Assembly: GCA_977862235.1 (NCBI GenBank)
Contig: OZ374565.1
Coordinates: forward strand, 558,001 to 622,000
Length of the DNA: 64,000 bases
Source: Dudresnaya verticillata
Taxonomy: Eukaryota
Reading direction: 5' to 3'
In this document: piece by piece, positions 16,066 to 63,850 of the stretch
How the letters are laid out: each line of letters starts with the position of its first letter
Numbering within the stretch: position 1 is the stretch's first letter
Notes under the pieces: model-generated
Database searches by the model: none
What the model saw: only the letters and a program-made list of their open reading frames with translations
What the model was told of the DNA's origin: nothing
Program-made: the position numbers and the translations under genes

Positions 16066-16272
16066 CTAGGGGGGAACCGGTTTCGGTCCACTGGGCAGCT
16101 CCAGTCGTATTGGAACCCCCCGATCGCTCCGAGGAATGTCCTTTCCTATGTCCTCCCTCACCCGAACGATCGGTCTCGCAGGAACTCCCGCTTCCGCTTC
16201 CAAAGAAGGTTTTAGCACGCCCCGTGGGCTTACCCCCCGGGGTGCAAGTATGATGAGCACATTCAGGACCCC

Positions 16273-24049: not shown

Positions 24050-24531
24050 AGGCCAAACGAGGCGGTGCCATCCGAACGGCGTACAGGGATGAGGATGCCC
24101 CTAATACGACCAAGCCGTCTCTTCTTTAGGTAGGAAGCCGATCGCGGGCGGCGCCCCTACCCCCTCGGTAGGGGCGCCACCCGCGATCGGCTCGCGTGAC
24201 TCCATCGCCGCGTCGACTCTGGCGATGGGGGGAGGAAGTTGAGAGCGTTGAATCTTGGAGCGTATCGCACTGGTCGACAGGCAGCTGTACGCGTGGGGGG
24301 AGTGTTGGTGGTCGTGGTGAGCGATGACCAGACCACCCCCCCTCGGAGCCGCAGAGGCGGCTCCCTAAATAGCCCGTCGCGGCTCAGCGCGGGCACACCC
24401 GACGTGGCATCGACGCCCGTCACCGACGGACGCCCGGGGGCCCGCGATCCAATCCCGGGCGCCGTCTTGGCCACCCCACAGCGTGCGCGTCGTAACGGTC
24501 GCGACCGAGGCGTTCGCGCTTGAGGGGGGTT

Positions 24532-32531: not shown

Positions 32532-33037
32532 TGTTGAGATATATTTATGTAGAGAGCGGGGATCCCCGATCGGAGAAGTAGAAGCGGAGAGAGCAGTCGA
32601 AGAAGTAGTATCCTCTGCCATTGAGTACCAGCTACTATTCTCTAGTGCGCTCGGGATGTAACTCCTTGATGGGTCTCAGACGAGTAGCGATGCGGTGTAT
32701 GGGGTGATATTGCGCTGCCTTACCACTCTTAGTGTTCGATAGCCACGCCGGGACGCCGATATTGTTTCTTTGGTTCGGAAATTGCGCCACCCCGTTAAAA
32801 AACTCTCACTTTATAGCCGGCCACTGAACCAGATGTACTCAAAACTAGGTCCAATAAATGTTTACTATCACTTGTTGGCGAATGACAGATGCCTCGAGTC
32901 TGAAGGGCTACGGGGCTTCGCATATCCGCTATGTAGGCCCGAGCCCTGGCTGCCACAACGGCCACGTGGAAGTCATCGTAGCATTTTCATTACTAAAAAA
33001 CCTTGTCCTTCAGTTGGATTAAAATAATATATTAACA
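32532..33037. repeat. Dispersed repeat copy 2, LTR-like (TGTTGA...TTAACA), truncating CRE unit 2
   Basis: Homologous to 5522..5830; TG..CA ends but no TSD, so the boundaries are tentative. Confidence 0.55.
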
Positions 33038-38052: not shown

Positions 38053-38948
38053 TGTGGTGCAAAGCGTCCAGTGACGATAGACCGCCGAGCAGTTCGGGGC
38101 TCGGTGGGTAGCTGCGCCCTCGGCGGTAGGTAGTCCCGCCGTGGGCGACTTGGTGGTAGAGCAAAAGGGGCACGCCTTGGGCGGACTGTAAACGCCCGAG
38201 GCGGAAAGGAAGGAAAAGGGAAAGAGAAAGGGGAACACGTCAAGGACGATAGTGGACGTGGAAGCACGGGAGGTAGACGCTTAGCCGTAGGCAGCGGTTG
38301 AATGCGCGCTAGCGGAACGGGGAAGTCTGGACCAAGGCCGGCTTGCCCGGGCGTTTACTGTGACGTCTGGGACGGCTTACCTAAGTATAGTACGGCGGCG
38401 CGGCGGCGTGCGTGTAGCGCGGGAACTCGGGACACGTGTCGTCCCGGGGCGCGTCTGACAGATCACGCGTCGCATGCAGCCGCGCGTCTGATAGACCGCC
38501 GCACAATCCCCTGTGTGGGTGCTTACACGTACACGTGGACGCGTGTGTCTTACAGCCGCGCGTGCGCGCGCACTGTAGAGCGTGCGCCTTAGATCTAATC
38601 TGGTACTTGTCCGATCCTGATCCCATCCGGATCGGGCCAGCAATGCTGATACCGGCAGCCTTACAGGCGCATACCTTACAGCTTAGGCGATCCAGATAGC
38701 CAATCTGGATGCCGGATCCGGATCGCATCCGGATCCGCGCTACAGTGCCCCGGGGCGCCAGGTCGGCCCAGCACTGTACGGTGCCCGCGTGGCGCGCGGC
38801 GCGCAGTGCGCGCGCGCCTCAGCAAGCCGTCGATGACGTGTTCGCGCGCCAACGGCGGTGGTGAGCGCCGGTGGCGGTTTCTCCGTCGGTCGACGTATTT
38901 AGTCTGCCCGCTTTCAGCGAAAAAGGGCTCGCCTCCCCTTGCACCACA
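38053..38948 (-). mobile_element. Solo LTR with 5-bp TSD GATAG
   Basis: TGTGGTGCAA...TTGCACCACA ends; GATAG at 38048-38052 and 38949-38953; internal similarity to LTRs at 41434-42180 and 24532-25401. Confidence 0.9.
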
Positions 38949-39742
38949 GATAGTTGAAGCTGACGTTGAATCAGGTGATGCAGACGAATCAGAGATTCGC
39001 TAACGACTGCCCGTGATCATGCGATTGCTTTCTATTGTGCTTCACTGGAAGGGGACCACCGAAATGGACGACAGCTGAGCCAAGCAAGACCATCGGCCCA
39101 ACTAGAAGGAGACGCTTGGCCAAATAGCGACAATGCAGACGAACGGACGACGGTGAACATACACGTGGACAACACGTGTCCACCGAGTGTATACGCATGT
39201 CACACGTGGCCACCGAAACCAGCACCACGCACCACCTGTCGCGCTGTACAATTGTGATTCAGTTCATGGCGCGACGCAATCATGGTAATGGATTTGGCCG
39301 CAACGCAATCAGAGGAAGACAGGGAAACATCAAGTGAAAATCTGACTCATCTGGCCAATGACGAACGCACAAGTATTTTATTTAGTCTTGTAGAGGCATC
39401 ATATTGGCCCGACACCGGAACGCAAGTAGATATTATGGTCGATGGGGAATAACCTCGGCCACTAACTGTAGAATAGCACTAGATTAGCTGAAATGGCCGA
39501 TTTTGGGTCTATTTAGAAGGCCACACACTACGGCTCGGCCAGAATAGGAACGAAGCCGTCCCGCAAGAGGTTGTGATTAAAGTTTTGCAACCTTTCCCAA
39601 CTTGGCCATTCTACTGTTCTCATCCAGTTGCTGGCCACGACTTCCTCTGCGCGCACCTGCTCTACCACACTTGCTACTGACGCGTATGTCCTTTCTAAGT
39701 TGTGCCAGTCCCTCATAAATCCGTTCGGTCTCCCTGGTCCTT

Positions 39743-40437
39743 TGATATCTTGTCTTTGGCGCCGCACGCGGTGCTTCTTTTCGAGATTCTACAGTAGAGC
39801 GAGGGGGGAAGCCCTAGTAAGCAGACGGCAAACATCCACTAAGACTCGTGCAAACACGTAGGGTGTGCGGGGAGCGAGAGCGCCGGCCCAACACAAGCGT
39901 GTAAACATGGAAGAAACGGAGTGTCAGCACCACAGGCGTACGTAACCCAGCTCCATGACCGTGTCACTAACCAGCGGTACGGAGATAGGGGTACCCTAAG
40001 AGTGGAGCCGATGCTTGGTAGGGTTTACTGTAGGAGGGTGGTCCTAGCCCCTTAAATCCCTGCGGCGGCGGCGTCAGCGCGGCGGTGGAGACTAGGACTG
40101 TACACTAGCAAGTAAACTAACACTAAAGTACAATAAACTAACACTACAGTAGCACAGTGTACCTACTGGACACCGATACCAGCACGTTGTAAGACCGGTA
40201 ATGACGCGCGAGTGCGTGCGTGTGCGCGAGTCACAAGTGTTGCCCCTGTGATGCGCGCGATTGCGTGGGGGTGGCGGTAAGGCGGCGAGTGCGGCCCTGT
40301 AAAGGCGACAGCGGGGGAAAGCCCCAAGTGTGGGCGCAGGACCGCTTCGTTGGTTTCCCACTGACCCATGGGTGAGCCCAGCTTGGCGGTGCGCATCGCG
40401 GACGCACGTGATCATATGCGCGAAAATGGGGTTATCA
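39743..40437 (-). repeat. Probable Gypsy 3' LTR remnant
   Basis: On the minus strand a GGGGGG PPT precedes TGATAACC; contains the CAGTAAAC motif and an AT-rich block shared with the other LTRs; left end tentative. Confidence 0.5.
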
Positions 40438-40481
40438 ACCCCCCAATACGGGGAGCACGGGCGTTGCACCACACTCACGTG

Positions 40482-40790
40482 GAACTCCTGTGCTCGTGCG
40501 TGATCCTCCTGAGTTCTGATGCTTACCTCCTGTATTCGGGCGCGAACCCCCGCCGCGCTGACGTGACCCTCCGGCCTTCGGGCGCGGGCCTTCTGCGTTC
40601 TCATGTGAGCCACCAACATTCGAACGTGGACCTCCAGCACTTGGACGTGGACCACCAGAATGGGTACGAGCACCGCCGAAGTTGGCACGGGCGCCACCAG
40701 AGTTGGCACGGGCGGCATCAGAATTCGCAATGGCGCCACCAGATTTCACACAAGCCCCTCCTGAGTTAAGACGCGGACCCCCAGAGTAGG
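40482..40790. repeat. Degenerate 21-bp minisatellite
   Basis: Units like GCCACCAGAGTTGGCACGGGC; 7-aa periodicity (GGARANS/GGPRPSA) in ORF 40435..40821. Confidence 0.8.
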
Positions 40791-41433
40791 GTCTGGGGCT
40801 TCCGTGAACCATCCTGACCAATCTTTTTCAAGACTTCTCTCCTTCCCTCTTCTAACCCCCTTGACTTGCGTAACCCCTTGATTTAAGTACGACTCGCTGC
40901 ACAAACTGTAATACTGCTTTTGAGCACACCGCACTGCTTTCCGCTTAAACACGGCGCACCGCACCGTTGATTTGGCACACACCGGACTATCTTCTGTCTT
41001 CTACCTTCTGCCCTCCTTCTTCTGGCTTCTTCTTTCAGCACAGGTCCATACGTACGTCAAGTACACAAATTGTAAGCATTGTGCAACCAGAACCGACCTG
41101 CGCTCCCAGGGGCAACGTGAGGATAGCTTGACATTGGTGGTTCCACCGCCAAATACCCAAGGACTCCGTTCCTTACTCCTCTAGGGCCCGACAGGGAGGG
41201 AATAAATATCTCTGTAGCCAACAACACTGGACTGATGTTGCCGTTAAACGTCAGCCCTCCGAAGACATGCACCAACACAGGGATGCTACACCTCTGTCCG
41301 AAGCAAACAGATAGCCCTTTCACCTCGCGGAACTAATAAGCTCAACGCAAAGGGTATTCAGAGTTGCCGAATTGCCGCCGCCCAAGTCACGATCTGTGGG
41401 GCTTGCACGAGCAGTCTATTGGTCAAGGAGGTC

Positions 41434-42180
41434 TGTGGTGTAAATTGTGGTGCTCCGCACGCGATGAACGACCATACACTTTCCAATGGCGCCGTTATTC
41501 CGTCTACGACGGGCCAGTATCGCCAATGGCGTTTTGACTGCCGTTCTTGAATCGTTGACGCGAACACACCTTACGGGTGGCCCCAGTCGTTGACGATACG
41601 TGGGCACGTATCCATCACGTGTCCACGTGTACCTCCCCATGTGCAACCATCGTTGCGTAAGGGGACCGTGTCGTAAGACGGCGGGATTAATTACGGTGTA
41701 AGACGTGCGCCTGTAAGGCTGGCCCGGATTGGGATCGGCCTCAAGATCGACCACGATGTCATACGCACGCTCCTGTAAGCCCCATGCATGGCCAATTGTA
41801 GTTGCAAGAAAGAGTGCGGGCGCGCGCGACGACGACGGGCAAACCTGTCAGGAACATGACTGCACGCCGACGCGCTTTCCAGCCGCACCGCAGGACAACA
41901 CGTGTCCCAAGTTCCTGCGCGCTGTTACGCCACCGCCGCCGGCCATGCAGCTGTAGTATTACTTAGGTAACCCGTCTAGAACGCCGCAGTAAACCCCAGT
42001 AAGCCGTGCTTGGCCCAGACGACCCCTTCTGCGTAAGGGCGTACCCTACCACTGCCCCCGAGCCTCAAGCGTCTACCTTGCCGCGCTTCCACGTTCAGCC
42101 TCGTCGTTGACGTGCTTCTCTTTTTGTACTTTTGTTCTCCTTTTCCCGCATGGGGCGTTTACAGTCCGCCCAAGGCATGG
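41434..42180 (+). repeat. Truncated LTR related to solo LTR 38053..38948, in opposite orientation
   Basis: 41890-42178 aligns with the reverse complement of 38173-38445 (ACACGTGTCCC, CTTAGGTAA, CAGTAAAC, GGGCGTTTACAGTCCGCCCAAGGC). Confidence 0.75.
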
Positions 42181-42599
42181 CACTTGATTTGGCGCGAGGC
42201 GGGGACAGCGGGGAAAAGAGATATATACGCCTAATGGGGTCGCGCGGCTTGGCGATCAGGACGCATTCAGCCCATGGCGTTGCAGCTTCGCTGCTGCTGA
42301 TGCTGCTAATGTTGCTGGTACTGATGCCATTGCTGCTTTTTATTGGCTGTCAATGCAAAATATCTCGTAATGTTTAGGCGGACGAAGAAATAATTTGGCG
42401 GTAAGTGATAGTAATAGCGGGCTGAAATTATTTTTCCGGTTATTTTACCGGTAGGAACCCCTCCGGCACACTCATACACGTACAAAGCATTCCTATGAGG
42501 AGAATATCACGGTTTTGTGACAAATATTGAGCACGTGTCTAACTGAAACAAGCTTTAATATGATCCTTTTGTTATGTCTCCAGAACTCCACCTCTGAGT

Positions 42600-45571: not shown

Positions 45572-46300
45572 TTATTCTTTTTGCGGACGCTGCGAATCCC
45601 AATCGATGGGAGTACCCGGTGGAGGATTGTTCACAATGTTCATCCTTGAGCTTCTGCGCTTCTCTTCATGGACTTTGCGAACTGCTGTCTCATTCTGCCA
45701 ACGTTCTCGTGCTGACAAGTTATCCATGTCTATAAGCAGAGGGTTGGGAGCCATCTCACTCAGCTTCTGCATTCCTCTCTCCTTTGCTTCCCTGAGAACG
45801 TTACTCGATGCGAAATCTTGCTCGCGTCCTGCCACATTGTATTGCCCTTCTTTCCCTATTACACCCGTCATGAAAGTCTTGAAGACCGACCTGTCAAAGA
45901 TCTTGATGCCCGGAGTCTCTAGACCGATTATTGCCTTCCCTGTGCTGCTGAAGTATACCAATGTACTCTCCAATCTTGCCAATCCGATCCGTTTCACGAT
46001 GTCCTTCGCAGACTCCCCGTCATTGTACAAGTCGGCTACATTCAAGGATTCCATTTTCTGGCCCATTTCCACCACATCAAATGCTACGTCCTGCAGCTCT
46101 GCCAGACATTGACCATGTACAGCCGGGTTTCTATGCTCCATTCTGTTCTTTTCGATAGTGCCATCCGTGTGCCATGCACAATTCAAGTGCAGGCTTGCAG
46201 TCCTGCGTAACTGAGCGTTCGCCACTTCCGAAACTCGATGAGGGGTGCTTCCTGTTGCAGTAGTCATCTCAACATCACGGTGGCGGGCTGCGGTCTTCAT
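45572..46300 (-). CDS. Hypothetical protein, probably the C-terminal part of a disrupted gene divergent from the transposase
   Basis: 242-codon ORF with protein-like composition; no family recognised. Confidence 0.45.
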   Translation of the reverse strand: MKTAARHRDVEMTTATGSTPHRVSEVANAQLRRTASLHLNCAWHTDGTIEKNRMEHRNPAVHGQCLAELQDVAFDVVEMGQKMESLNVADLYNDGESAKDIVKRIGLARLESTLVYFSSTGKAIIGLETPGIKIFDRSVFKTFMTGVIGKEGQYNVAGREQDFASSNVLREAKERGMQKLSEMAPNPLLIDMDNLSARERWQNETAVRKVHEEKRRSSRMNIVNNPPPGTPIDWDSQRPQKE

Positions 46301-46863
46301 TATTGCTTCGTGTCGTAAACGGTCGTGATAGATGTCTTACAGGATATATTTTTCCCGTTTCTCTCCACACAGTATATGGGAGAGAGACCGAACTCATCAC
46401 ATGAACCTGGGATTCGGATTTCCCACGTATTACTTGGCACAAGTATTGACACACGTTGTTGTCGTACCAGAATTTGATTGACGAGAATCAGAATCTCCCG
46501 TCCACCACTGTTTCGGTTGCACTCAAACTGTACGGTCGTCCCCAGGGTAGTTATATGACGTAAAGACACGCGCCTTTATTCCGTCGTTGAAAGAAGGCAC
46601 ACAGGATCTCCATGCGATATATAGTGAGTGCATGCAAAAGACAATAAACCGTCACATCGCCATATTTTGACCAATCAGGGGGCCCCATAGGTCTCAACGA
46701 CTGACGAAAGCCCCACCAGATTTCAAGATCTGGAAAGACTCCCAGGGGGTCGTTACAGTCCGCTATACGACGTCGGTGCGGACGCAAGGCGCCGAAATAT
46801 GTCACCCAGACCCAGACCGGCTTCTTTCACGCACAAGGATCGTCGATCGACGAGCGTGTCGAC

Positions 46864-48158
46864 ATGCCGCAGGTCAGAAGAGCTAAGACTGCGGCCCTGG
46901 CAGCTTCGATGGAATCTCTAGCCACAGTCCTTGTGGCTTGGCGCCGCTCTCGCTTGAAAAAACCCACAGCTACACGGAAGCGCAGATCTGGACAAACACC
47001 TCAATACCGGCGCGCTGTGTTGCTCTGGCCGGTCTGCACTACCAAGGCAACTCCGTGGAACCAAACTATTTCCTGTGGCATGGACAACGACTTTGTAGTC
47101 TCTACAAACTTCATCAAAGAGATCATTACTCAACTCATTTTACCGTACTTTCTGTTAGAACGTGCTGCATGCAATGTTGGAAGTCTGTACCGATATGGAG
47201 TCAAGACAAGAGGAAGGAAACCTCTTCTAAACAGCATTGACCTCTTGGACATGGCGCTTTTGTATGTAAAGAGTAGAGACACTATATACACTTTATGCAC
47301 AATTTTCGGAATACTACCGTCTAGTATAGGCGTGTGGCTTGAATATTGCCTCAAAGTTCTCAAGAACATCGTTTCTAAGAAATAAAGGACCGACTTTGAA
47401 ATCCGATGGCCCTCACTGGCCGAAATGAAGATATCTGCTGCACTCTTGGAGAACAACCGAGATAATGGACGACTGCTTTCTGGTATTTTTGGAATCACTG
47501 ACGGAGGAAGGATGCCGTGCGCTGACTACACGGATGTAAACCTGCAAAACGCCTATTACGAAGGCTTTACACAGTCCGTTGAGGTTACGAATCTATTCGT
47601 GTTTAACTTTTTGCGAGAACTTATTCATGCTGCCGTCAACTACCCGGGTAGTTGGTACGACAACAAGCTGGCCATGGCGTCTAGCCTATACTATCCGAAG
47701 TTGTCGGACGAAATGACCCCCCCGGAATGGCCATCCTTGGTGATGCAGCGTTCGTTAATAATCTTCGGGCAAATAATGGGAGATTAACGAGAAGCAGAAG
47801 AGCTAATGAAACAAACGATATACCTACATCATGCTATCTTGCTGCAGTCGCTTTAATACTTCAGCGGCTGATCCTCAGCAAGCGGCAGAGTGCAGAATGG
47901 GGGATTAGGGCTATCAAAGGTCAGTTTGCGAGACTTAAAGTGCCCCTGCCTGCAGATTCAAGGAAAAGACTTCGACTGTTATTAGTATTTTGCCACGTGT
48001 TTAACCTTCGGACAAGATTTGTTGGACTGAATCAGATAAGGACAACGTATAGCATACTCATACCTCGGAGGAACATTAACCGGGCCTGTTCACGCATGAA
48101 TCTTCTAACGATTAAAGTCGACCTTCCAGAGTCCCATAGCCGTCTCACATTTGTGTAA
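46864..48158 (+). pseudogene. PIF/Harbinger DDE transposase (DDE_Tnp_4-like), one stop and one frameshift
   Basis: FGITDGG (D1), QNAYYEG, VNYPGSWYD, ILGDAAF (D2), RQSAEWGIRAIKGQFARL (E), NLRTRFVGLNQIRTTY. Confidence 0.92.
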
Positions 48159-49171
48159 TCAAGCTTCATCTGTCTCAGTGCGGTTCGGTGGTGACTGCTG
48201 CGATTTGGAAAGAGTCTCTAAGACAGACGTCATTTGCAAAATCATTTCTGTAGCGGGACGCAAAGATTATTTCAGCTCTTCGCGAACTTGCCTCAACTCC
48301 TCCCTAATAGCAGATAACTCGTCACGAAACCCCGTATTTATGCTTTATGCTTTCCTCATTCCCACTTCCGTCGGTTGCATTATTGTACATACTGAATGAC
48401 TGCGAAATTGTTCCAATTTGTTCGGCAATCTTGCCGACGTGTTATAACATCGCGTCGTCCACTATTGACATCTTAGAAGGCGTTGATATTCCCCCCTTTC
48501 CAGCTTTTCTCTTTCCTTGACGGGTACCCACAGTTCGTGGTTCTTCTTCTGTCTCCCAAAGACTGCCAGCTAGCACGCTATTACCGTCAGAACCGTCATC
48601 ATTATCGTCACCGCTGCCGAGGACTCGAGCGGCGCACTTATTTTGAATAGCACGGGCTATGTGTTTAGCGTGGCGAACCGGAGCCGGGCAGGAGGGGTCG
48701 CCAGTTTTCTTCTTTCTGTTTTCCATCTTGTCGAACTTTTTCTTGACAGAATCAGGGTCTCGGTTAGGTCTGCTATTGTTTGCTACCCATTCCTCGAATT
48801 CTCGTCCAACTACTGCCCAGTGGTTGGATCCAAGCGGCTCGACGTTCTCTACGAAATACAGTAAATCGTTTACGTTGTCTGTCACAGTGGAGTATTTGGG
48901 CGCTCCTGCACTCGTCTGCCGTCCTTTGCGTAAGCGCAGCTATGCAGCAGGGGCAGCGGAGCCAGTCGTATTGGGTGTGGTCAGTGTTAGAGGGCCGATG
49001 CGTCACGGGTGAAGCTTGCAGAGCAGGTGCTGTGTTTCCGAGGCTTGTTTGGACCGATGTCGGTATTGCGTCGACAGGCTCTACAAGGTCCAGCACTTCC
49101 TCGCCCGAGGCGACTTTAGCCGGCATGGATGGTACACTGGCAGGGCTGGGTTGAGACATACCATCCGCCAT
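48159..49171 (-). pseudogene. Harbinger Myb/SANT-like DNA-binding partner gene, convergent with the transposase
   Basis: LLYFVENVEPLGSNHWAVV...RDPDSVKKKF...KKTGDPSCPAPVRHAKHI; coiled-coil tail ELSAIREELRQVREEL; canonical two-gene Harbinger layout. Confidence 0.8.
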
Positions 49172-52134
49172 GCTTGTTCGGGGTGTGGCGAAGACCCTCG
49201 GCGACCGGAACGCCTTGCGCAAGTGTCAAAATATACGACACGCGGCGCGAGAAAAGTGGTGGTGTGGCGGCAAGAGTTTTTTGAAAAGCTATCATATCTT
49301 TCGAAACTGGCGATATGGTGTTTTCTGCATGCACCCAGTGTGATGCCTGTCTCCAAGGCTTAAACTATAGCGGTAGTCTGTGCTCTCAATGCGGGAAAGC
49401 TCATTTGCCACCTTGCACGCCCCTTCCGGGGTTTGACTAAGTTTTTGACTTCGCTCTACAATCCTTCATGGACGTCTACGTAATCACCTTCATATTCGGA
49501 ATGGGTGGTGGGAAGCGAAAGGCGAGAGGTGCTGGACCTAAACAGATTCCTCGATCGGCACAGACCGCAAAGGCTCTATTCGCCGACTTATTAGATGGTT
49601 CCGTCAACACAGGAGGAGACCCCGCTTCCTGTATTACATTGACGGCCATTAGTTCTATTTTGAGGTCTGGAGTGGAGCGATTGAAGGCGCGCTTTGATAT
49701 GTCGCGCAAGGACCTCCACGGTCCTCAAGCTAGTGCAATTGGATATCTTGCTGGCTCTGACGCTCCCATTGCAATTGAAATGTCTGGGTCCTTTCGATGT
49801 TTAGTAATTGAGCACTTCCAACAAAAGTTGAAGAAAGACGGAACGTCATACTCGCAAAAAGAATCCGTGGAAATGTCCAACGATCGAGCGAAATGGTATG
49901 GGGTAGTGGACGGGATGCACAGACTTATAGCAATCACAGAACTCCGGGAGGAGGACTACGAGATGTGGAAATCTTTCTCATGGCCTGTTACTGTTCTTAG
50001 AGGGAGCCATGATTTGCAGTCACTTCGACAATTAGCTCATAAACAGAATGATAAGCACGATTCTTCATTCTACATCGAGACTACTTTCATCGGTACTCTT
50101 CGAGGCCTGAGAGAGGCAGATCGTCTCACAGCGGGGAATGGCGGAAAACGTCCGAATGCCACGAGGATTGCTGAAGCCTATGACGGATGCAACCACTTCA
50201 GGTACAATACTTTTAAACAGACTACCCAGACTTTCCTTGTACTTGACCGCGCAGTGATGGGCACAATCGGAGACATTATAGACGAAGAGAGGGGTGATTT
50301 GGTGTCGATTCGAACTGCAACTGTGGATCACAAGGACATTAATAGGAGTGTGCACTGTCGATTGTACCGCAAGTTCACCAATATAACATCTCTCAAGTCC
50401 GCTACAATATTCATGAACGCGTCGAAAGTACCGGATAGTGTAAAAGCACTGGTTGTAACTTTATACCGTTTGAGAGAATTGCACCGTTCACACAACCTCA
50501 AACCGCTGTCTTACCGGTACACTGTGGAACAGTTTCAGAAGGCCACCGCCGTTCTTCGTGAGGTTCGTAAGTTTGAAGCTCTTCTTGAAAGTCACGAGTG
50601 GCCAGAGTCCTTACAGGTGCTTCACTCGAACCTTCTCAACACACAGAAGATGGATGATGAGGTTGCGGAGAGTATAGGAAATAACAAGGACATTGTGGCA
50701 TCTATACTGGAATTGTACAGGGATGTCTGTCCCCAGGAAACTGCTTTCAAGGAGAAGAAGCACGCCGACTTGGTTAAGAGCATTACCGGAAATAAGAAAA
50801 CACATAGTTCAGGACAGGGTCCAGATAATGACTCTCTGGAAGGCCCGCACATGCACTGTGATAGTGCCGAGCGCAAGGATTGTGGAGATTCCACTCCTTC
50901 ACCAAACCCCGGGCACCTGTTGATAAACAGAATTGCAATTCTGTCACCGCGGGATGTGTTGACAGTACTATTGGTTCCGGAACAAATCCTTCAGAACCGC
51001 ATCAAAACGAGTAAGAATCATCAAATGAGGAGGCAACTGTGGCACAAAACATGAAAACGAGAAAGGGACCACCAATAGCCATGCTGGAGACACCGGGGAG
51101 GACACGAATGGCCATCTGGAAGGGAATGCAAAAAATACACGATCGTCCGCGTCTACAATACATTCTGGAAAGCTCGAAACATCAGGTACTGAAGAAGTCG
51201 ATGCACTGAATTCAATGAGGATCAGTTGCCACCATATGAGGTGGCAGACGTATGACCAGTCCGTTCGAAACGCCTCAAGCACACTGTTCAACCTCGTACT
51301 GACGGACCCTCCGTACGGAATACCGCCTAGTCGTTCGAATGCTGGTAATCTTACGACAATTACATCAGCGATGGGGAGATTAAGCAATTCATCGAATTCT
51401 GTCGAAGGATCGTTAAACCTGGTCACTGGGTTTTCATCTTCTGCAGTTCCATTAACTTCGCAAAGTATCAACGTGTTCTGGTTGATGCTGGGTTCGATTG
51501 CCCGCAATATCCCTTCACCGTTTGCAAAGATACGAGGACATTTCAAGGACATCGTGATGACTACCCACAGAATGCTACGGAAATAGCCGCGTTTGGTCGC
51601 CGACGGGGAACGTGCGGGGAACATTCAAGCCTGGCCTCTCGAGTCCACTTCACTTCTTGGGAAGCAAAGATCGGCGAACGTTCGCAACCTTCTCAAGTGC
51701 TCCAGTATCGAGACAAAAACTGCTGAAACCAGGGACCAAATCCCCTGTTCTGGTAGAGGAGAAGAACGTCTTGGCTGTAATGGAGGTCATGACAACTTTC
51801 TGCCCCGATGGTCGACGCGTGTTGGATGTCTACGGAGGTACTCTGAACACTTGAATTGTAGGATTGGGAACGGGGTGTCCGACTGTGGGAATCGAGCAGA
51901 ACCCCGCAACATTGAGGCTGGCATATGATCATTTGAAGAATTCCACAGTCGATGTGTGTAATGAAAAGCAGCGCTCTTCCACACTCACTGTCGTCAAACG
52001 GCAACACTTCGAAACGACTGCCGATACTGATTCCGCTGAGAAGAGGCGGAAAGTAGTACGGAATGAGAAGAATGTGATAACATCAACTATAACAGACCGG
52101 CAACCCGCCAAACAGAAACGAACTAGTCCAGAAG

Positions 52135-55100
52135 TTGATAAGTGGGGTAAAAAGGGTCTGCAGCATGCAGATCAGTAGTGAGAGGGAAAGCGTGGTACTG
52201 CAGTTGAAGTGTCAAAGTAGTTTTGATTGTGGTAGTAGATGGATACCTCAGAAAGCAGAGGAGTGCTTGTCGAGTCAATACTTATAGACTACAGTCCGCC
52301 ACACAGAATCTATCGGACATGATAAAGTGATGAGTCTCGTCATCAACGGTATAGTCGTTCTAGTAACAACTAAAATACAATCGTAACAGTAAACTATCAA
52401 CGACTGCAGTGCAAAAGATATTCGTGCCATCTAAAAAGATCACAAGTAGTTCTTCAAGCCATGAACGATTCCAAATACAGAAAGCATTTCCAAGCTGTTC
52501 AAGCTTGTAGAAACTCAAAGTTAGACATTCCTCCTCCTTCGAGTGAACCTATCCGAGGAAAGCATCAGATTCACGAGACGCGTGCATCGCGAGATCACAG
52601 GGTAGCTTGCCATCAAACATGAGTAGTTGTAAACGGTCTGATACAGCAGAATCAATCTTAGTTAGAGGGTCTGCGAAGTTAAGAGTCCCTGGAATCCATG
52701 TCACCTGATTGAGCGCATGTGTTTCGAAATTGTACCTTAGTAGTAGTGCAACATCAGCTGCAATTGACTTATCATCAGGCACTCTGCAGGTCTACATTAA
52801 TGAAAATAAACCCTTAGAATCAACTGCTAGTCCCAAATGCACTGAACCTCCCAGAAGCAATGTGTATGTAGCTGCGATGACTTTTCCAGCATCAAGTGCC
52901 TCCCGTGCAGCCATAACTTCTGCAGAAGCACTAGATTTAGCTGGACGTCTGGATAAGTGGGATTGCCAGCTAAGTACATGAAACACAGACCCTTTTTTCA
53001 ATGGGCCAATGCAAAGGCCAGCAACGTATCCAAGTTGACCAGACTCGTTAGGTCTGGCAGCATCAGAAAACATAAAAACACTTACATCATATGACCCCTT
53101 TTCTGGAGTTCTGAACTTGGTAGTAGACCCAATTCTCTGAAGTTTTCTTACTAAACCTGCCTGTCGCTGCAAATCATGTACAGTTGTGGACGACCGTCGC
53201 TGTTGCATAACACTTGTGTACAGAGATGCAAAGGGAGAGACATTTTGACCCAAGAATCCAAAGGACCCATTTATAGATGAGAAGGAGAAATCCTCAATTG
53301 CGTTCAATGAATCATCAACCTGCTTTCTTCTTGTTCTTGTTAACCTGTACGGGGTGAGAGCTTCAACTTTGTCTTCAGCAGATATATGAATAACTCCGTC
53401 TTCATCTTGAGTAATAGTTAGCCCAAAGAATACGAACTCTCCTGGTAAATGAACGATTGTTCCGAGCTTATCTCGTTTCGATAATGCATCTATGAACGAA
53501 GACTCAGCATTTTCTTCGCCAACAATCAGAAGGTCATCGACAACTTTGGCCACTAGTAGTACTAAAACGCCATCCCTGCACATATAAAACAACTGGGGTA
53601 TGTGAACGACAGATGAAAGTCCCAGGTCAAGAAGTGTGGAGTCAGAGTGGTATTGCCATTTTGCATTAGCATTAACCAACCCATAACTTGCGGTCAGTAG
53701 GAGCCAGTAGAACAATCGATTGACACACTCGCGTGGTGGTATGACATACACATCTCTTTGCGCTCTTCCAGACTGTAGAAATGCGCTCTTAATGTCAATT
53801 TTGCTGATAAACCAACCGAATATAACTGCAATGGACAATAATATTCTAAATCCCAACGGTGGGCATGCAGCAGAATCAGTCTTGAGTGATTTTCGCTCTC
53901 TGTCCTTATTGCCATGTGGTGCAATCCTAGCCTTGCACCTCTTCGAACCATCATCTAGACGCTTGACCTTGTACAAGACGTGACTTGAAATTATATTCGC
54001 TCCATGCGGAACCTTAGATATGTGAATGCGTTCACAGGTTTGCAAGAAGCTTTCTTCTTCACTTCGGTATGCATTTTGTACTACAGAAGGCGGTAGACCT
54101 TGCGCATCCTTCAATAAGAACTCCTTGGTCCCAAAGCGTTCATAATAGCTGTCCAACAGAATTTTGTCTGAAGGTGTTAGCATCTGTCCTGATTGCAGAA
54201 CAATATCAGCTGCATTAGCATTTCGAGCTTGTGAGCGTGTAACCATTTGGCGTCCATCGTCATTAGCATCACCAAGGGAATTTAGTTCACGTGTGCCAAC
54301 AGGACCTGGAGGTGGGTGGTATGTAAGTGAATCTGCACCAAACTGTCCATGGGGAGACACTGAGTCAGGGCTAGGGTGCACACCTTCACCTATATCCTTG
54401 TAATTTCCATCTTGTACATTATGTTTAGTTTTCTCATCAGCATGTACATCACCATTATTTGTTACATCAGTAACACTAGTCCATCCATTGTCTTCTACAT
54501 CATCATTATTTCCAATACAATTTCCATCATCATCGTTTCCATCATCATCATTTCCATCTTCTACAATCACATCAATAGCTGAATATACTGCTGAGTTACA
54601 TCGATCGATAGCGGCTTGAACCATATGGGAAAAATCGCCTGACTGGGCAATGCGAACCGAACATCCTCGACTGCTGCTTGAACGACACGACCAGCCTTGC
54701 CAGGTACAGTAACAGTTTGAGATTTTTTGTCAAAGGAAAGAACAGGTCTTGGTATAGTCCATTTGCCTCTTTTCTCATTGGGTTGCTTAATATAAAGTTC
54801 AACAAGAGTGCCGACATCAATTGCTGCATCTTGTGAAGACTTAGAGCGTAATATTGCCGTAAGCTTGCGGCGTGCAGATAAATCACCGTGTGCTTTGATT
54901 ATCTCATCTGGTATAGTAATCGGAGAGTCAGTGGGAATGATAGGACGAGTAAACCCTTTCGCTAGCTCATATGCGGAAGCTATATCATTACCATAGAGGT
55001 CATTTGATATCCTCATTGCCTGAATCACGAGTAGTCGTGCATTGGCATTTGGGTTGGCGTGATGCAATCGCATAAATATCGACTTAATAACTCTGTGCTT

Positions 55101-57434
55101 GGATTCCAATGCATTTTTGCTTGGACGGCGTGGGGGAGCTGGACGAAACATAGTTCCAATAGAATTCAAATGGTTTTTGAACTCAGCCACATTGAAGGCA
55201 GGGTCTCCCTGTACAGCAGCTGGATTCCAGAACTGTGATATCCAATTTGATTCAAGCACATTAATAGCGTTGGTCATTCCCTTAGTTTGCACGCAATCCC
55301 CAGCAGAGTACCTTGATACAGAATCCATAATGTGGAAAACTGATTCCTGCTCAGGAAAAAATGATCAATATATACGAGCTGGTTAAATCCCCTAGAGAAA
55401 TTATTCAGGGAAACAGTACGGGATTTGACTGGAAGATCCGTCTCGTGGCAACTTCTGCAGGACTCAAGTGTCTTGGATAAATATGATGCACACTCATCTG
55501 TCCAAAGGTTGTTTCTCTGAAGCAGTGTCTTGATGTCGAAGTAGTATGAATGTCCACATACATGTTTGTGGACTTTATCAATAATGGACTTCAAATGCCT
55601 CCATGACAGTGAGTTCGAATTTTCTGATGCTTCAGTAGCAGCACGCAAACTGGAGCAAACAACATTATCCTTTGCCGCCGTAAACCTTGAAAACGTCAAA
55701 TAGTCCAGGAAGTCATGCTTCAATAGTGACACAGTGTCATATTGTCCGTTGCTTAACTCAGTAGGCAATTGGAGAAAACGGCCATCGATGTGTTGAATGT
55801 TGCAGTGGTTGGTAACATTTTTCCAACAATCCATTGTGAGGACCCTTCAATAACAACATGCCGTACGTCTAAGACAGAACCAGAGTCACTTAACAAACGT
55901 AGAACAACGGAACCAATAATTTTTCTAGTGCTGCTCGCATGAGAGCCTTGACCGTACTGCCAATAAGGTCTATCGGCAATTGATTCAGGAATCTGTTCGA
56001 GGCATTCATCCCACGAACTTAGGACGAAGGGAGCAATTTTCCTTAGTTCAACAAGCCCAATGCCAGAGTAGGGTGCACCATCGTCAAGTAATGGGCCTGG
56101 AACACGAAGTGGAGAGGCAGTAGCACTATGAATATGGACATTGTTGAATTTCAAGGTCTTTGTCTTACCCTTGTTATCACTTTCATTGTTCCCATTCGTG
56201 CCTTTCTGCGACATAGAACATTCAGCATCACCAGCCCAATGGCCTTTCTCCTTGCACGCACGGCATCTGGAGTTCTTCTTGAAAGCAGCAAGTTCTTCAG
56301 CTGTCATATCCTTGAATGCCTTGCTTTTGACAGGGCGAGTTCTAAATGGGCGATGGGTAGCACTATTACCCGACAATGGGGTAGTTTGTCGCAGAGAAAG
56401 CTCAGCAGGCTTGTCACATGCCCGCAAGATCGAAGAGACTTCTTCATGTTTGATCTCATTTAACATTCCATGGATCTTGTTTTGACCGGGTCTCTGACGA
56501 ATTTCAGAATGTCTGGGGGCAGCAGCAGCTAGAATAGATACGCGCTGGTGTGATTCCACATTTGCATTTGCAAGCAACAGAAAGGAGGTAATTGATTCAG
56601 GCAGTCTTGCATCACCAGCTGCAGCATTGAATCTACTCAGCTTGGCATCAAACCGAGTCCCAAAGTTCTTAAATCCTTCAGAATCACCTCTCGTAGTCCC
56701 TAGCACAGACATAAATTTCTGGAATACGTCATTGACCACTGCAAGAGGGTCGTCTTTGTGAAGAGCACGTGCTATTTCATTCGCGCCATCATCCGACAGC
56801 AGTGTGTCTTCTGATATCTTCTTCACAATGTCTTGAGCACGCCCAAAACGTTGAGCTTGCAACACAATCCCTTGAAGTCCTGGAGCAATCTTATTGCTGT
56901 TCGATTCCGGTAGCTTGTCATGGAACGATTTCCACAGCCGTACAGCACGTACAAACTTTTCTTGTGGACCACGTCCGTCCAAGGAGCATCCTTGAGGGAC
57001 CAAGAGAACTTGGGGCGAGATGGCAGATCTGGGCTCATAACTTGATAAGTGGGGGAAAAAGGGTCTGCAGCATGCAGATCAGTAGTGAGAGGGAAAGCGT
57101 GGTACTGCAGTTGAAGTGTCAAAGTAGTTTTGATTGTGGTAGTAGATGGATACCTCAGAAAGCAGAGGAGTGCTTGTCGAGTCAATACTTATAGACTACA
57201 GTCCGCCACACAGAATCTATCGGACATGATAAAGTGATGAGTATCGTCATCGATGGTATATTCGTTCTAGTAACAACTAAAATACAATCGTAACAGTAAA
57301 CTATCAACGACTATAGTGCAAAAGATATTCGTGCCATCTAAAACGATCACAAGTAGTTCTTCAAGCCATGAACGATTCCAAATACAGAAAGCATTTCCAA
57401 GCTGTTCAAGCTTGTAGCAACTCAAAGTTAGAAA
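52135..57434 (-). mobile_element. Full-length Ty1/Copia LTR retrotransposon with 5-bp TSD AGAAG
   Basis: Near-identical ~393-bp LTRs at 52135-52527 and 57042-57434; copia-type internal-tRNAiMet-like PBS GTTATGAGCCCAG; PPT GAAGGAGGAGGAA; AGAAG at 52130-52134 and 57435-57439. Confidence 0.97.
52549..57038 (-). pseudogene. Copia gag-PR-IN-RT-RH polyprotein, multiple frameshifts
   Basis: CRACKEKGHWAGDAEC; LLDDGAPYS; HKHVCGH...CRSC; DSVSRY, GDPAF, NALESKH; CKARIAPHG, DIKSAFLQ, VVDDLL; FSDAA, NFADPLTK. Confidence 0.95.
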
Positions 57435-57909
57435 AGAAGGCTCTGAATCGGGTCCTCTGCGGGGTGCTTCGAAGGTAGTCCTGCTTCAAGACGGAGATAA
57501 AGTCGGAACTGCACCTGTGGAACGAAATGCTGAGAGTTCCAAAATAACTGAGACTCTCCACGGAGTGTCGTTGTCAAAGGTTACGAGGGAAGGATAACAT
57601 CTCGTTTCTATTTGCGGATTTAGCGCCTTGCCTGGATGTGAGTCCCGGAAGTATCCGAATAGTTTCACAGGCCAAGAGGAAGCGCCGGAGACACTGAGTG
57701 GGCTGGTGGGGTTCTTCGAATGGGATTTGCACGAGTTGGAATCGTCTTAGTACGATATTACGGTCAGAGCAACCTCCGAGATGCATATTGGGTACAATCG
57801 CCTGGCACAAGCTTTTCAGAATCCTCCGTCTACAGTATTTATTCAAGATCGAGTGCGGCTTTGATGCCATGGCCTTGCAATTTCTGTAACGTGGACAACT
57901 ACATGCACC

Positions 57910-58227
57910 ATGAACTCCTCACATGTACATCGCGACCGAATTCCGAGTCTTGACCCCATGACCATGTTGCGTGAAGTTCAGAATCTTCGGGCTGAGGTTC
58001 TTGAGATGAGGTCATTCATCGATGACGCACGACTGCGCCTGTATGCCATTTACAGCGACGTTTTCAACCGCGTGGGAAAGGTGGTTGTACAAGTGATGAG
58101 GTTTGCCAGGCAGGCTCGAGACAGACTACGTTCAATTGAAGAAAGGTTGGGAATTGAACACAGAGAAGAGGTGGGCATCGAGTTGGATTCAGATTCGGAA
58201 TCACATTTGCCTGCCCCTCCCGTTTGA
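57910..58227 (+). CDS. Small coiled-coil protein with acidic tail
   Basis: 105-aa ATG ORF; EVQNLRAEVLEMR heptads; resembles ORF 45111..45389. Confidence 0.45.
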   Translation: MNSSHVHRDRIPSLDPMTMLREVQNLRAEVLEMRSFIDDARLRLYAIYSDVFNRVGKVVVQVMRFARQARDRLRSIEERLGIEHREEVGIELDSDSESHLPAPPV

Positions 58228-59073
58228 GCACCATTGCACTGCACACATAAATGCCCAGTGAGAAGGGGCTAGAAGAGAAATCAGAATGACGCGTCAAACA
58301 CTCCAGGAGCTGAGAGGTGAGATTGACGAACTGCGTGTGCAGGTTCTCCAATTGTAAACGAGAGCAAACTATCTCGATGAGCAACTTCGGGCCGTTGCAC
58401 AAGCCGTGAGGGAGGTTATGTATGGTGACGGCAGGTGAGCTGTGAACGCGTGAGGAGCATTAGAGGGAGAGGTAGGGCCCTATTCACTGCGATTACCAGA
58501 ATTTGTGGTCCAGCACAGAACGAACGGAACCCCGCTTCGGATGGGGGGATACCGGAAATGTTTAGCCATCGGCAATCTTTAGAGTGGCCCTGTGTCTCGC
58601 GAGAAACTGCGGTTAGTACATGCTCTGAAAAGAAACAATGATGTTTACTAGCAAGCTGGGGCAAGTTTGCGCGGCCTCCTCCCCTATTGGGAGATCCTCC
58701 CAGCAGCAACAGAACTAACCCTTAATTACTATTGTCATGCGATTATATTTGGTTATTCGGATAGACTAACAGCATTGGTTCCTATTACCCGTTAAAGAGA
58801 AAGGTACCAGTCTGAAAGAAGGGAGGGAGGGCGGGAAAGAGACAGGCACACCCGGGAGACTCTGTCCACCTGGTGGGTGCACTCTCGTCTCAAGTAGAGA
58901 CTCGATGCGGCGGCGGCGACGGCGAGCTGATCCATTCCGTACAGCCTGTGATCCAGACCGGATGACCCGAATCCGGATTTTAATGGATCACAGCATCGTA
59001 CGCGGTGAGACGTGCACACGCATGCACACCCTTGCTATGCATTGTCATTACGTTTCATGCGCATAAAGAGGCT

Positions 59074-60195
59074 CTACATCACATGAAACCCCCCATATAA
59101 TATCCGAGGCATGAACCGGTGCCACAAGGCGGCGGCAATCGAATCATGCGAGGAAACGGTAGCGGGGCAGGGAAGACCGGCTCCGCTCCCGAAAAAGCAG
59201 AAAGACTCGGCGGTAGTCCGAAGCGTGCGATCGAAATAGAGATGAGCCATGGCGTCACCATTTGGGCCCCAGCCGAAACGAGCAAGCCTCACCGAGAGTG
59301 GGATGCCCAACAGTACTTGTTGGATTTGGGCACCGATACGTAACGAATGTGACGTAAAGTTCCCATACAGGGGCGGCTGGAGTGCGAGATGTTGTAAGCA
59401 ACGCTGAAGGGCATCATTCAGTAATGTCCGTACCGTCTCTGCGCTCTCCCCAGGAATGGCGAAGAAGCGACTTATAGGATGTGTTCCACGAACCACGTCC
59501 CAACGGCTCCGAAGGTCAATCGGGGACTGGAGTGACGCTAAGCGGTCGTACCGTACCAGTGCCACCTTGCTCGCCCCTTGGCCCTTTACCATTGTCAGGC
59601 AAGCAATCACGTGACTCTCCTCCAGGTCCACGTTGACGAACAACTGTGAATTCACAGAGCTCTCTCGAAGACGATTAAAAAAACGACCATACAACCATGG
59701 CACAATCACGGATAACTCTGATAGTTGGGCTTGTCATCCCTAATGGCCATATCTGATGAACGAACTTGGCAGGTATTCCACACCGAACACTTGCAGCTGG
59801 GTATGTGTCTTCTTCCCATCGGGAGTACGCCCGCAGTGCATGCGAGACGAACGGAAAAGACGGGACGTGTTCACCCGTCAGAAGAAGTTGCATCTGTCTG
59901 ACGGCACTGAGGTACTGAGGCACCGATGCGGACCCAACGCGACGGGTACCTCGTTCCCGCGCTAGGCACAGCCATCCATTGTACGTGACCAGGTGTCCCT
60001 CGGTGACTGGGAGAATTGTTCGGTTCTCCTCAGAACAGAACTGAACCCAGGTCTCCCATTGGCTGTTCCTAGATTTCACAGTACGTGGGCTCCATGCAAA
60101 GGAGGCCACCAGCTGTAGCGAACACTGAGCCCCTTCACTGGTACCCGCGATAGCCTGTACGCGTGATGAACCGGCTGCAGTAAGTCTCATTCGAG
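59074..60195 (-). pseudogene. Tyrosine recombinase of the DIRS-order element (frameshifted)
   Basis: N-terminal core-binding region WSPRTVKSRNSQWETWVQFC...QYLSAVR; catalytic HSLRIG, FGW, MAHLY. Confidence 0.9.
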
Positions 60196-60319
60196 CAGTG
60201 GACCGGGTTACAGGTTGATCTCCAAAGCCAGGACACGCCACTGCGGGTTCAGTGTGCGCTGTGCCTCCCACACGTCCGTGGTGTTGAGTGGGAGCCGTTG
60301 TACCCGGCCGGCCAGACGC

Positions 60320-62108
60320 ATCGAAGCGTGGTACCAAGCCTGGCGTGGCCATTCTGGTATCAGGAGGACTGCGGGGGCCTCGGTGTGCTATAACTTGAGT
60401 TTTGTCGCCTGTATAAGGTCCACTGGCGGTGATAACAGCCGTACTTAATCCGTCGCGTGCCAAGGCGCGTCCAGTTCCCGAAAGGCCTGACGGCGTCGGA
60501 AGACGGGATGCTCTTCCAACGGCCGGTAACGAAACGATTGGACTGGTGCTGCCATTCCATCCCGCACGGAACGCAGCAGCTGCTTGCGGATCTGGAGGTC
60601 GCCGGCTGGGAACCGTGGCGAGAGGGAATCTGCGAAACGGTTTGCGGCCGAAGGAATCCACTCGCTGCGGATGTTCAGCCCCAGTTGATCCAGGAACACC
60701 TTCAAACGTCGCAGCTCGCGCATCATGGGACGACTGGAGGAAACAAAGGCGTTCGCAACATGGACTACAGCCTGATTGTCGACGTGTAGCAGCAGGTTCT
60801 TCTTTTCTGGAGCGGTCAACTTGCTCCCGAGCTTCCTGGCGAGGAGCTTTCGGATTGCCTTCAACTCCCGCAGAGAGATGCAGGAAGCTCGGTCTCGCCA
60901 GCTCCATACTCCTTGTGCGCGCCATTTTACATCGATTCCAGGAAGAAAGCTGCGGAAATTTAGGGTCCCTTCATATCCAAAGTCGGCGGCGGCGGTATGC
61001 ATTGCGGCATCGGGCTGTACCGGGTGCATGCAGCGTCCCTGCAGTTCAGCTGTGGACAATTCCTCCCATTTCAACAAGTCTCGTATGCCCTGGTGACTGA
61101 TCCGACGCCTCCCGCGTTGATCCATGCGTGCTTTGGACAGGTCCCAGTATAGTGATAGGGTGTAGAAGCGCGCCCATGGAATAGCCAGCGTAAGCGACAC
61201 GCATACACAACAGAAGTGACGCAGGGCTCGTTCTGAGACCCATCGGCGACCGATGCGTACTTCCTTGAGGAGTCGGCGCGCTAAAACGCGTACTTTCTCG
61301 ACCTTCCGCAACTGGACGAGATCTTCATCCGTTTCGTGTCCACGACAACCCCAAGGTGACTGACTACCTGTGCACCTTGCCATTCTCCCTTCGTCGCGTG
61401 ACAGGAGAGCCCCAAGTTCCTCATCAGCTTGTCTATCGCTCTCGTAGCAACCTGGCAGTCCTCTACCGAATCTAACACACCAAGGGCGGAGGGCGAGATC
61501 AAGAAATCGTCGAGGTAGGCGAGGACGCGGAATCCCCGTCTCCGTAACTCCGATACGAACGGCACCATGAAGCGAGTGAACCACATTGGTGAGCGCCCCC
61601 ATCCAAAGTGTAATGAGATGCAGCGGAAGTAACGCCCGTGGTACTTGAACAGGAACCAGTCCCGCATCCACGGGGCTAAACGAAGGTGTCTGTATCCCCT
61701 CTCGATATCCATCGAGAGCAGATAATCTCCCTGTTGTAGCCCACTTGCGAACTCCGCCACCGACTCCATTCTGATGGAGCCCTTGTCCCAGTGTTTGGAC
61801 TGCTTGGAAACGTTCAGTACGAAACGTCCCTTTTTCCATTCTCGGTCTCCTGCCAGACGGTGAAGGCCGAAGAAAGGATCGCTCCCTGAACCACCGCCTT
61901 TTCCACGTGCTCCCTGCCGACCTCCTCGTAAACACCCGTCCTGCAGCCTTCCCCCAAATCTGCAAATGCGAACTGGAGATCCTCTTCGGTCTGGGGAAGA
62001 TCCCCGAGCTCCTCGACTTGACCAGGAATGAACGGGCGAGCAGGCAAGTTGCTCACGCCGAACTTGATCGCTCGGTAGATAAATTCCGAGCAACCGAGAT
62101 CGCGCCAT
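60320..62108 (-). pseudogene. DIRS RT-RNase H-degenerate methyltransferase ORF (frameshifted)
   Basis: ORFs 61281..62108 and 60445..61965; reading past the stop gives LLSPPVDLI...AVLLIPEWPRQAWY. Confidence 0.88.
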
Positions 62109-63504
62109 GCTTCAGCTCTCTTTTGAGTCTTTCTCCAAAGCGGGCGCGGATAACCAATGTCGACTACTGGTCCTTGGCGGCGCCACCCCTGCCTCCGGCA
62201 CGCTTTTTTGCGTTGCTCGCGCTTAGGGTGGCTACCGCCTTCATCAATTGCGTAGCCATGTGAGATTCCAGTTTCTCCATTGGCTCTACAAGGTCATCCG
62301 CAGCAGGCATGTCAGCTCTTGCTTCCAGGGTAGGCATGACCAGTTTGGCATATGTTGGGTCCTTGGACGCCAATTTGTAAAACTCGCACCGCAATCCGAC
62401 AACTCTTAGAGAGTATCGGATGTACATGAGAGCCCACACGTGCAACTTGAGAGCCTCGTCGTCCTGCCTCTCTTGCAAAGCTTCCTGATGTAGCGCTGTT
62501 GCAGCCTCGTGGAAGGACATCCAATAACCCTACGCGTTGATGTAGTTCGCTTCGTACTCGGCGACGGGGCGTAGACTATTATGCTTTTCCATATGCTTGC
62601 GGATGGGCTACTCTCGGTGCTCGAAGAAGCCACCATTGAAGGCATTCACCGAGGGGCCTTGCTCATAAGGATACCGGCTCAGTCCGAAGTCCTTGTCGTC
62701 ACGGCATCGGCGAGCAATCTTGGCATTGGCCGTCATCCATGTCGGGTCAATCTCGGCGTCTGCAAGGGTCATTCCAGCAGCAACCTTCTTGGCCTTCACG
62801 ATCAACGCGCTGAGTGCCGCGAGACTGGTGTCAAAGATGCCCATCGTGACAATATAAAGGGTTCGGGGTAGCTCGCTACCCTCTTAGCCGTCTTCGTATG
62901 GCTCTCTTGAAACAAGCCTACCGCCAGAGATTCTGGGGACTCTCTTGAAAAGAGAAAGGCACACCCGGGAGACTCTGTCGACCTGGTGGGTGCACTCTCG
63001 TCTCAAGTAGAGACTCGATGCGGCGGCGGCGATGGCGAGCTGATCCATTCCGTACAGCCTGTGATCCAGACCGGATGACCCGAATCCGGATTTTAATGGA
63101 TCACAGCATCGTACGAGGCGAGACGTGGACACGCATGCACACCCTTGCTATGCATTGTCATTTCGTTTCATGCGCATAAAGAGGCTCTACACCACATGTA
63201 AAATGCGTTACGTTGCATCTTTCCATGTCGTCTCACTGTCGAAAATCACGACAACACGCCTGTATCCGTGCTTAACGGTAATGCCGCGGAGGACAACTCC
63301 CTGCGCTGTGCGCTGTGCGCAGGGAAATTCGACCTGCGAGAACGTTTCTGCTTCACATGGGCGCCTGCTCTAAATCCGGCGCGGGGTCAGCAACGATAGC
63401 CTCGGCGCAAACAGGAAGAACTGGCGGCAGAGTGGATGGCGCGCGGCATGGTGCACGAGCTGCACGCACAAATCTGGCGACGAGCGTCGGCAGGCGGCGG
63501 ACGA

Positions 63505-63850
63505 GCCCCGGATAGGTTTTCATAGAACGGCCCGGCAGAAATGTAAAAACTAATATCAATATTGACGAATAGGTTTTCACGGCGCGCGAGATCGAATATC
63601 TGTTTAATAGGTATTTCTACACTGAATCTGGAAATACATATATAGATATTTTCCAAATCACTCTCACAAAACCTATTCTAATAGGTTTTGCTGTCGGCGC
63701 GTCAGAAATAACTTTATAGGTATTTGTCAGCACACAATCAGAATACCTATTAGAAAGGTATTTGCGTCGCCGGGTCGAGAAAACGTAAAAACCAATATCG
63801 ATATTGCCGGATAGCTGCTGGCGGCTCGCATTCGCAGAAACCTATCCGCC
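63505..63850. repeat. Cluster of ATAGGT(T/A)TT motifs in both orientations
   Basis: Copies at 63512, 63568, 63606, 63680, ~63716 and reverse copies at 63668, 63742, 63838; palindrome CAAAACCTATT-CT-AATAGGTTTTG at 63667-63690. Confidence 0.7.

Follow-up and report, generated by a model that had tools for sequence, protein, structure and literature searches.

The closest described system to the locus reported here is a gene of the Ectocarpus element Sola1-1_Ec32, which encodes a 1104-aa protein with a ParB-like module and an N4mC/N6mA methyltransferase (PMC12477816). The hypothesis that such a gene binds and marks its own element has already been published (PMC12477816; bioRxiv 10.1101/2025.02.11.637652). 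Related components are known from the Plavaka accessory genes, which are said to move between transposon families of red algae; of these, PAG2 encodes PF01555 together with SET, and PAG3 encodes a ParB-like N-terminus together with a 2OG-oxygenase (bioRxiv 10.1101/2025.02.11.637652). In fungi, DUF3723 is described as a conserved cargo family of Starships (10.1101/2021.12.13.472469). Pangu elements are defined by ANT target-site duplications and terminal inverted repeats (TIRs) of 11-40 bp, and Table S3 of the source has 15 families from Chondrus crispus, 2516-6364 bp long, among them Pangu-1_CCri, whose columns, as we take their meaning, give a 2754-bp element with an ANT duplication, 15-bp TIRs and proteins of 385 and 241 aa (PMC4482050).

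We analyzed a stretch of DNA of 64,000 nucleotides (the window) in which a gene predicted to combine a ParB-like module with a beta-class amino-methyltransferase lies beside a Harbinger-type transposon (Table 1). We consider it probable that this gene, now a pseudogene, was an accessory gene of a larger algal DNA transposon, and that the neighboring Pangu Harbinger inserted upstream of it independently. The fusion gene is likely to belong to the class of algal transposon cargo genes already reported.

Table 1. Features of the locus in window coordinates.
Feature	Position	Strand	Evidence and remarks
243-aa ORF	45572..46300	-	Weak HTH_7 (E 0.084); nothing else useful
Pangu/Harbinger2-type DNA transposon, 2711 bp	46626..49336	.	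AGT at 46623-46625 and 49337-49339; methyltransferase gene outside
Left terminal inverted repeat	46626..46643	+	15/18 match to right one; starts GA, not GG/AG
Harbinger-type DDE transposase pseudogene	46864..48158	+	DDE_Tnp_4; stop 47383, frameshift ~47716
Second Pangu gene, broken	48140..49172	-	PF20681/DUF6818 E 2.2e-12; 3' end approximate
Right terminal inverted repeat	49319..49336	-	Between second gene and methyltransferase start
ParB-like/beta-class amino-methyltransferase pseudogene, 5' part	49501..52134	+	ATG to Copia insertion; tblastn pieces, profile
Predicted N-terminal ParB/sulfiredoxin-like module and helical region	49552..50787	+	DGMHR ~49909; model pLDDT 94
Predicted beta-class N6A/N4C DNA methyltransferase domain	51194..51965	+	DPPY 51305-51316, DVYGGT ~51825, frameshifts ~51347 and ~51610, TGA 51852
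Copia LTR retrotransposon splitting the methyltransferase gene	52135..57434	-	RVT_2 E 3.6e-16
3' part of methyltransferase gene	57440..57750	+	TAA 57595, stop 57748

The window copy is a pseudogene. Along its length it aligns at 38% identity with intact relatives, which measure about 890-1,050 aa, and tblastn against these returns four consecutive pieces in frames +1, +2, +1 and +3. In a frameshift-aware alignment with three intact relatives, shifts fall at about 51347 and about 51600-51615, and a third shift lies in a poorly conserved linker that separates the frame +1 ORF (homology to about 50790, stop at 51052) from the frame +2 piece. An intron in this linker was considered and dropped as unneeded, because the linker length agrees with that of the intact relatives. 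To a read-through of about 950 residues bridged with X, the family profile gives 717 bits, far above chance, and the identity of this read-through to ten close relatives is 34-39%. A search of Rfam returned no match. An earlier reading of the sequence only had named the DPPY, RRIVKPG, EEK, VLDVYGGT and GIE motifs, a TGA at 51852, about three frameshifts and a resulting pseudogene. Each motif was found where it had been placed, as was the WYGVVDGMHR motif at 49894-49923; the TGA lies within the methyltransferase frame in the frameshift-aware alignment; and the lesions now amount to 3 frameshifts (two placed by alignment, one in the linker), 2 stops and a Copia insertion. The extent proposed by that reading, 49501 to 52134, holds for the start ATG and fails at the end, where 52134 belongs to the target-site duplication of the Copia element and the gene resumes beyond it.

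The Copia element has 393-bp LTRs (52135-52527 and 57042-57434) with 10 differences between them, and is flanked by the duplication AGAAG at 52130-52134 and 57435-57439. The methyltransferase frame runs on in frame across the empty site, and the downstream part matches residues 880-975 of the intact relative P0159 (tblastn E 4e-12). The family has a conserved C-terminal domain of about 100 aa, present in 25 of 53 full-length rows (defined below), for which an atlas search and Pfam yielded no named family and nothing useful. Directly 3' of the methyltransferase stop, at 57865-58440 (+), there are two short coiled-coil-like frames, similar to each other by eye, with no useful Pfam match.

The first ORF of the gene recovers 341 clusters (50% identity) at E<=0.001, a large and fast-diverging family with many truncated members. 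From the 150 clusters listed, 50 long ones were chosen for scans with PF01555 and SET. Motifs were counted in 52 relatives of at least 750 aa plus the window copy, giving 53 rows after removal of 6 near-duplicates, with two near-identical pairs retained. Intact DPPY members include P0003, P0159, P0163 and P0228.

Several lines of evidence support the assignment of the methyltransferase domain to the beta class of amino-methyltransferases, its fold being predicted through intact relatives. In the window gene DPPY lies ahead of DVYGGT, and the family profile compared with M1.HpyAVI (E 3e-18) likewise has DPPY before the SAM motif. The profile search against PF01555 that the sequence-only reading had proposed succeeded with intact relatives, in 46 of the 50 long ones picked among the matches listed (39 above its cut-off; E 1.6e-14 in P0003), and failed with the broken window pieces, which by themselves gave no match to PF01555 or any other relevant Pfam family. 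A model of intact P0003 matches M.BceJIV, CcrM and M1.HpyAVI at about E 2e-10 (Foldseek; best E 1.6e-10), and a rotifer N4-cytosine enzyme is among its fold matches at about E 1.5e-9. These results uphold the class that the sequence-only reading had proposed from motif order. SET was found in none of the 50 long relatives scanned and in none of the window pieces.

The kind of mark that such an enzyme would write is less firmly indicated. DPPY together with the top fold matches, which are N6-adenine enzymes, would favor 6mA, with 4mC less likely; some DPPY-type beta enzymes make 4mC. In the SAM-side motif of the family, the second Gly that is canonical there is absent (profile DpyaGtltt, compared with DPFMGSGTT). 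Of the 53 rows, 23 have an intact motif IV, 6 have a variant and 24 have lost it, and these 24 rows without [DNS]PP[YFW] have nevertheless kept long open frames. Activity is therefore not assured, the SAM-side motif being non-canonical and the catalytic motif absent from so many full-length rows. An alternative is that the main function of the cargo is DNA binding or anti-silencing, or that it writes 4mC, with adenine methylation dispensable. The rows that have lost the motif, which include every member of two supported clades (9 and 10 rows), are in keeping with this alternative, as are the SAM-side motif and the rotifer enzyme among the fold matches. However, in the supported clade that holds the window copy (SH-aLRT 99, in a tree without P0090), all 11 rows retain DPPY at identities of about 35-50%, a pattern suggestive of selection on catalysis, and N6-adenine enzymes head the fold matches; we regard a role without adenine methylation as quite improbable for the family. 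The end branch of the window copy is 0.95 against 0.5 for its sister, about twice as long, as expected after decay.

The clades with long frames from which DPPY is gone include P0017, P0021, P0022, P0029, P0047, P0064 and others. A joint loss of DGxHR and DPPY (17/22 versus 4/24) was considered and rejected as unsupported once relatedness is taken into account (3 independent pairs, p 1).

The N-terminal module is likely ParB-like, as judged from predicted structure. The model of the N-terminal 412 residues of the window gene has a pLDDT of 94, and its Foldseek ranks 1 to 11 are all ParB, Noc or KorB, at E 0.03-0.5 with none reaching E 0.001. VIA-align placed ParB-N first (Z 9.2, rmsd 4.2, 214 aligned), Z values of this size being middling for the tool, and also returned PadC (Z 7.5, rmsd 2.7, 97 aligned), sulfiredoxin ranking fifth. 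The top named viral matches are mostly ParB/Spo0J-like (best E 2.3e-3), and a ParB-like PHROG was matched at E 0.029, below the cut-off. These matches are weak but consistent, and they are in line with the ParB/sulfiredoxin module that the sequence-only reading had proposed. The ParBc family that it had expected in Pfam did not appear, as the first ORF of the window gene matches no Pfam family. Across 80 members, Pfam gave DndB in 6 and GmrSD_N in 2, all below the cut-off. DG is kept in 49 of the 53 full-length rows, and DGxHR in 24.

The top ESM Atlas matches of 49552-50787 are fungal DUF3723 clusters at 0.94-0.95 (0.95 corresponding to 169/256 features). PF12520 is absent among the Pfam families listed (25 of 41) for the 80 members, and DUF3723 is not confirmed by Pfam. 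It is possible that DUF3723 and the N-terminal module have a ParB-like module in common.

With respect to origin, phage matches (18 records, about 25% identity) cover the methyltransferase domain only and leave out the N-terminal module, to which plasmids offered no match either. No direct prokaryotic donor of the fusion was therefore found. Loci of relatives were also sought in viral contigs and GTDB genomes, with none found, and in metagenomes, with none in 312 stretches and 3 true loci of 11 in a second scan. L004, L006 and L007 are three different members from one assembly project, on loci of 1.6-3.6 kb, a flank too short for an adjoining transposon to be seen, and none was. A PHD-like Cys/His finger occurs at the 3' end of L004 (466-630, -) and at the C-terminus of P0043, as seen by a match to the Cys/His pattern (Pfam PHD E 0.045, below the cut-off).

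The sequence-only reading had placed the methyltransferase gene on the neighboring Harbinger, head-to-head with its second gene at about 330 bp. The spacing is accurate, as 328 bp separate the ATG of the second gene (49172) from that of the methyltransferase gene, and the carrier is not supported, because the element, with its right TIR and AGT duplication, ends before the methyltransferase gene begins, at 49336 and 49339. The ends were found by scanning for inverted termini flanked by a 3-nt duplication that is identical on both sides; this gave 12 candidate pairs in three right-hand regions. The best pair closes at 49336 with 15/18 matches and AGT on both sides, equaled in 0 of 400 shuffles; the 18-nt repeat length was picked post hoc, the TIR contains a palindrome, and the boundary comes from one copy. 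The two regions beyond the methyltransferase gene reach 12/18 at best, which is chance level. Both ends have the TIR core and two inner motifs in one shared order (7 of 300 shuffles), and the element with its duplication ends 161 bp ahead of the methyltransferase ATG (49339 versus 49501). Two other candidates were dropped: a TIR at 46746, which has no partner, and a 12-nt match at 63945 as an element end, which scores at chance level.

Within the element, the transposase shares 62% identity with P0168, its best relative, and 54% with a relative named from the red alga Hildenbrandia rubra, which makes a red alga the likely host; it lies tail-to-tail with the DUF6818 gene. The sequence-only reading had called the latter a Myb gene; no Pfam Myb family matches it, DUF6818 (PF20681) being found instead, and a W...R...KF pattern would make it Myb/SANT-like. 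Loci of transposase relatives amounted to one distant 1.9-kb locus in 14 stretches, with none viral.

The alternative that the Harbinger bears the methyltransferase as a third gene under a shared bidirectional promoter, or that both travel as a fixed composite, might draw on the 328-bp head-to-head arrangement, on the similar decay of all three genes, and on published precedents, namely, SET- or TET-bearing Harbinger-type elements (PMC12730594) and fixed nested insertions in giant algal transposons (PMC12477816). Against this, the element is closed between the genes by its TIR and AGT duplication, the search for a matching end on the far side of the methyltransferase gene found none, and the size of the element is that of ordinary two-gene Pangu families. 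We therefore judge this alternative highly improbable and, with fair confidence, regard carriage of the methyltransferase gene by the Harbinger as refuted. The head-to-head spacing is likely an accident of insertion, given that the right end lies between the two genes. In the literature searched, Repbase being outside its scope, no report of a ParB-methyltransferase gene on a Harbinger was found.

If the Pangu insertion is subtracted, the ORF starting at ATG 46300 faces the methyltransferase ATG head-to-head across 486 bp. It is possible that this ORF is a partner gene of the true carrier. Pfam recognized no carrier transposase in the flanking frames (58 and 55 scanned), and no carrier ends were found in the window. 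For this reason, the gene is interpreted as transposon cargo on the strength of the literature and the repeat-dense setting, the window being mostly mobile DNA that consists of Gypsy, Copia and other RT-bearing elements. The lack of carrier transposase and ends in the window, and the presence of a single copy of the methyltransferase gene within 64 kb, would also be compatible with a domesticated or ordinary host gene that was killed after transposon insertions and was never cargo. This is improbable in our view, as the family is large, diverges fast and includes many truncated members, L004, L006 and L007 are three different members in one assembly project, the architecture has been reported from transposons (PMC12477816), and the window is mostly mobile DNA.

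Other features of the window include a Gypsy-like element with gag, RT, RNase H and integrase (14848-20497), further RT frames (27242-32581), a 4-kb element with imperfect inverted ends of about 300 bp and without recognizable coding content (38165-42185), a MITE-like element whose inverted ends measure 31 bp and which has a long inverted repeat inside (10090-10622), a CAP-domain frame (119-1006) and a 763-aa frame with no Pfam match (21809-24100). At 58836-63201 (-) lies a retroelement with 253-bp direct repeats and RT, in which RNase H-like and tyrosine-recombinase-like frames were recognized by eye; it is likely of the DIRS/Ngaro type. Beyond it, 63512-63845 holds an array of the 9-mer ATAGGTWTT in both orientations (7 exact copies and 5 with one mismatch; the pattern was chosen post hoc), which would lie about 1.4 kb from the methyltransferase stop once the element at 58836-63201 is subtracted. 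The array resembles the inverted-repeat arrays beside PAG3; alternatively, it may consist of subterminal repeats of another element.

On the basis of these comparisons, we propose how an intact copy may work. The ParB-like module would recognize repeated sites in the DNA of its own element, possibly in a nucleotide-gated manner as in bacterial ParB. The DPPY methyltransferase would thereby be brought to the element and write N6-methyladenine or, less likely, 4mC. The mark might keep the element expressed or flag the element for its transposase. As for the history of the window copy, the methyltransferase gene would originally have stood head-to-head with the ORF at 46300; Pangu would have entered the spacer, Copia would have entered the 3' part, and frameshifts and stops would have accumulated, not necessarily in this order. 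A more far-reaching version can be formulated in which the family is a eukaryotic, transposon-borne, parS-guided writer, whose nucleotide-gated ParB clamp on inverted-repeat arrays (such as 63512-63845) spreads 6mA over its own DNA, with catalytically dead clades acting as readers or decoys and with DUF3723 of Starships encoding the same kind of ParB-like module; we regard this version as speculative and rather doubtful.

The sequence-only reading had suggested that a eukaryotic DNA transposon may carry its own ParB-like module and 6mA/4mC writer and mark itself. That suggestion remains plausible and corresponds to the hypothesis already published (PMC12477816), although carriage by the neighboring Harbinger is not supported. 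If true, a self-written, bacterial-type base mark on a transposon would be a new form of anti-silencing, an idea that is likewise already in print. The broken window copy alone adds little to it; what our analysis contributes is a large family with intact DPPY members, a conserved C-terminal domain that has no family name and motif-less clades, along with the removal of a false lead, as a Harbinger with methyltransferase cargo is not supported in the window.

The comparison with known systems places the locus as follows. The Harbinger-type element resembles the Chondrus crispus Pangu families of PMC4482050 in its ANT duplication, short TIR, length of about 2.7 kb, DDE_Tnp_4 transposase of about 400 aa and second gene; the window element is broken, and it is matched by these features. 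In HarbingerS, with SET, and in the TET-bearing PHISTA Harbingers, the cargo is described inside the element (PMC12730594), whereas here the gene lies outside the TIRs. The methyltransferase domain is like M1.HpyAVI, M.BceJIV, CcrM and M.RsrI in fold and motif order, with an identity to bacterial and phage beta-class methyltransferases of only about 17-25%. The best match given for PAG3, 7BNR, is Foldseek rank 4 for the window module; unlike PAG2, the window family is without SET (0 of 50 long relatives), and in contrast to both genes, the ParB-like module and the methyltransferase are joined here in one protein (bioRxiv 10.1101/2025.02.11.637652). Compared by its description, the gene of Sola1-1_Ec32 is alike in its two-domain architecture, its size (1104 aa, against about 950 aa or more here) and its proposed self-marking. 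It resides on a brown-algal Sola-1 element, while the copy described here is a pseudogene, likely of a red alga (PMC12477816).
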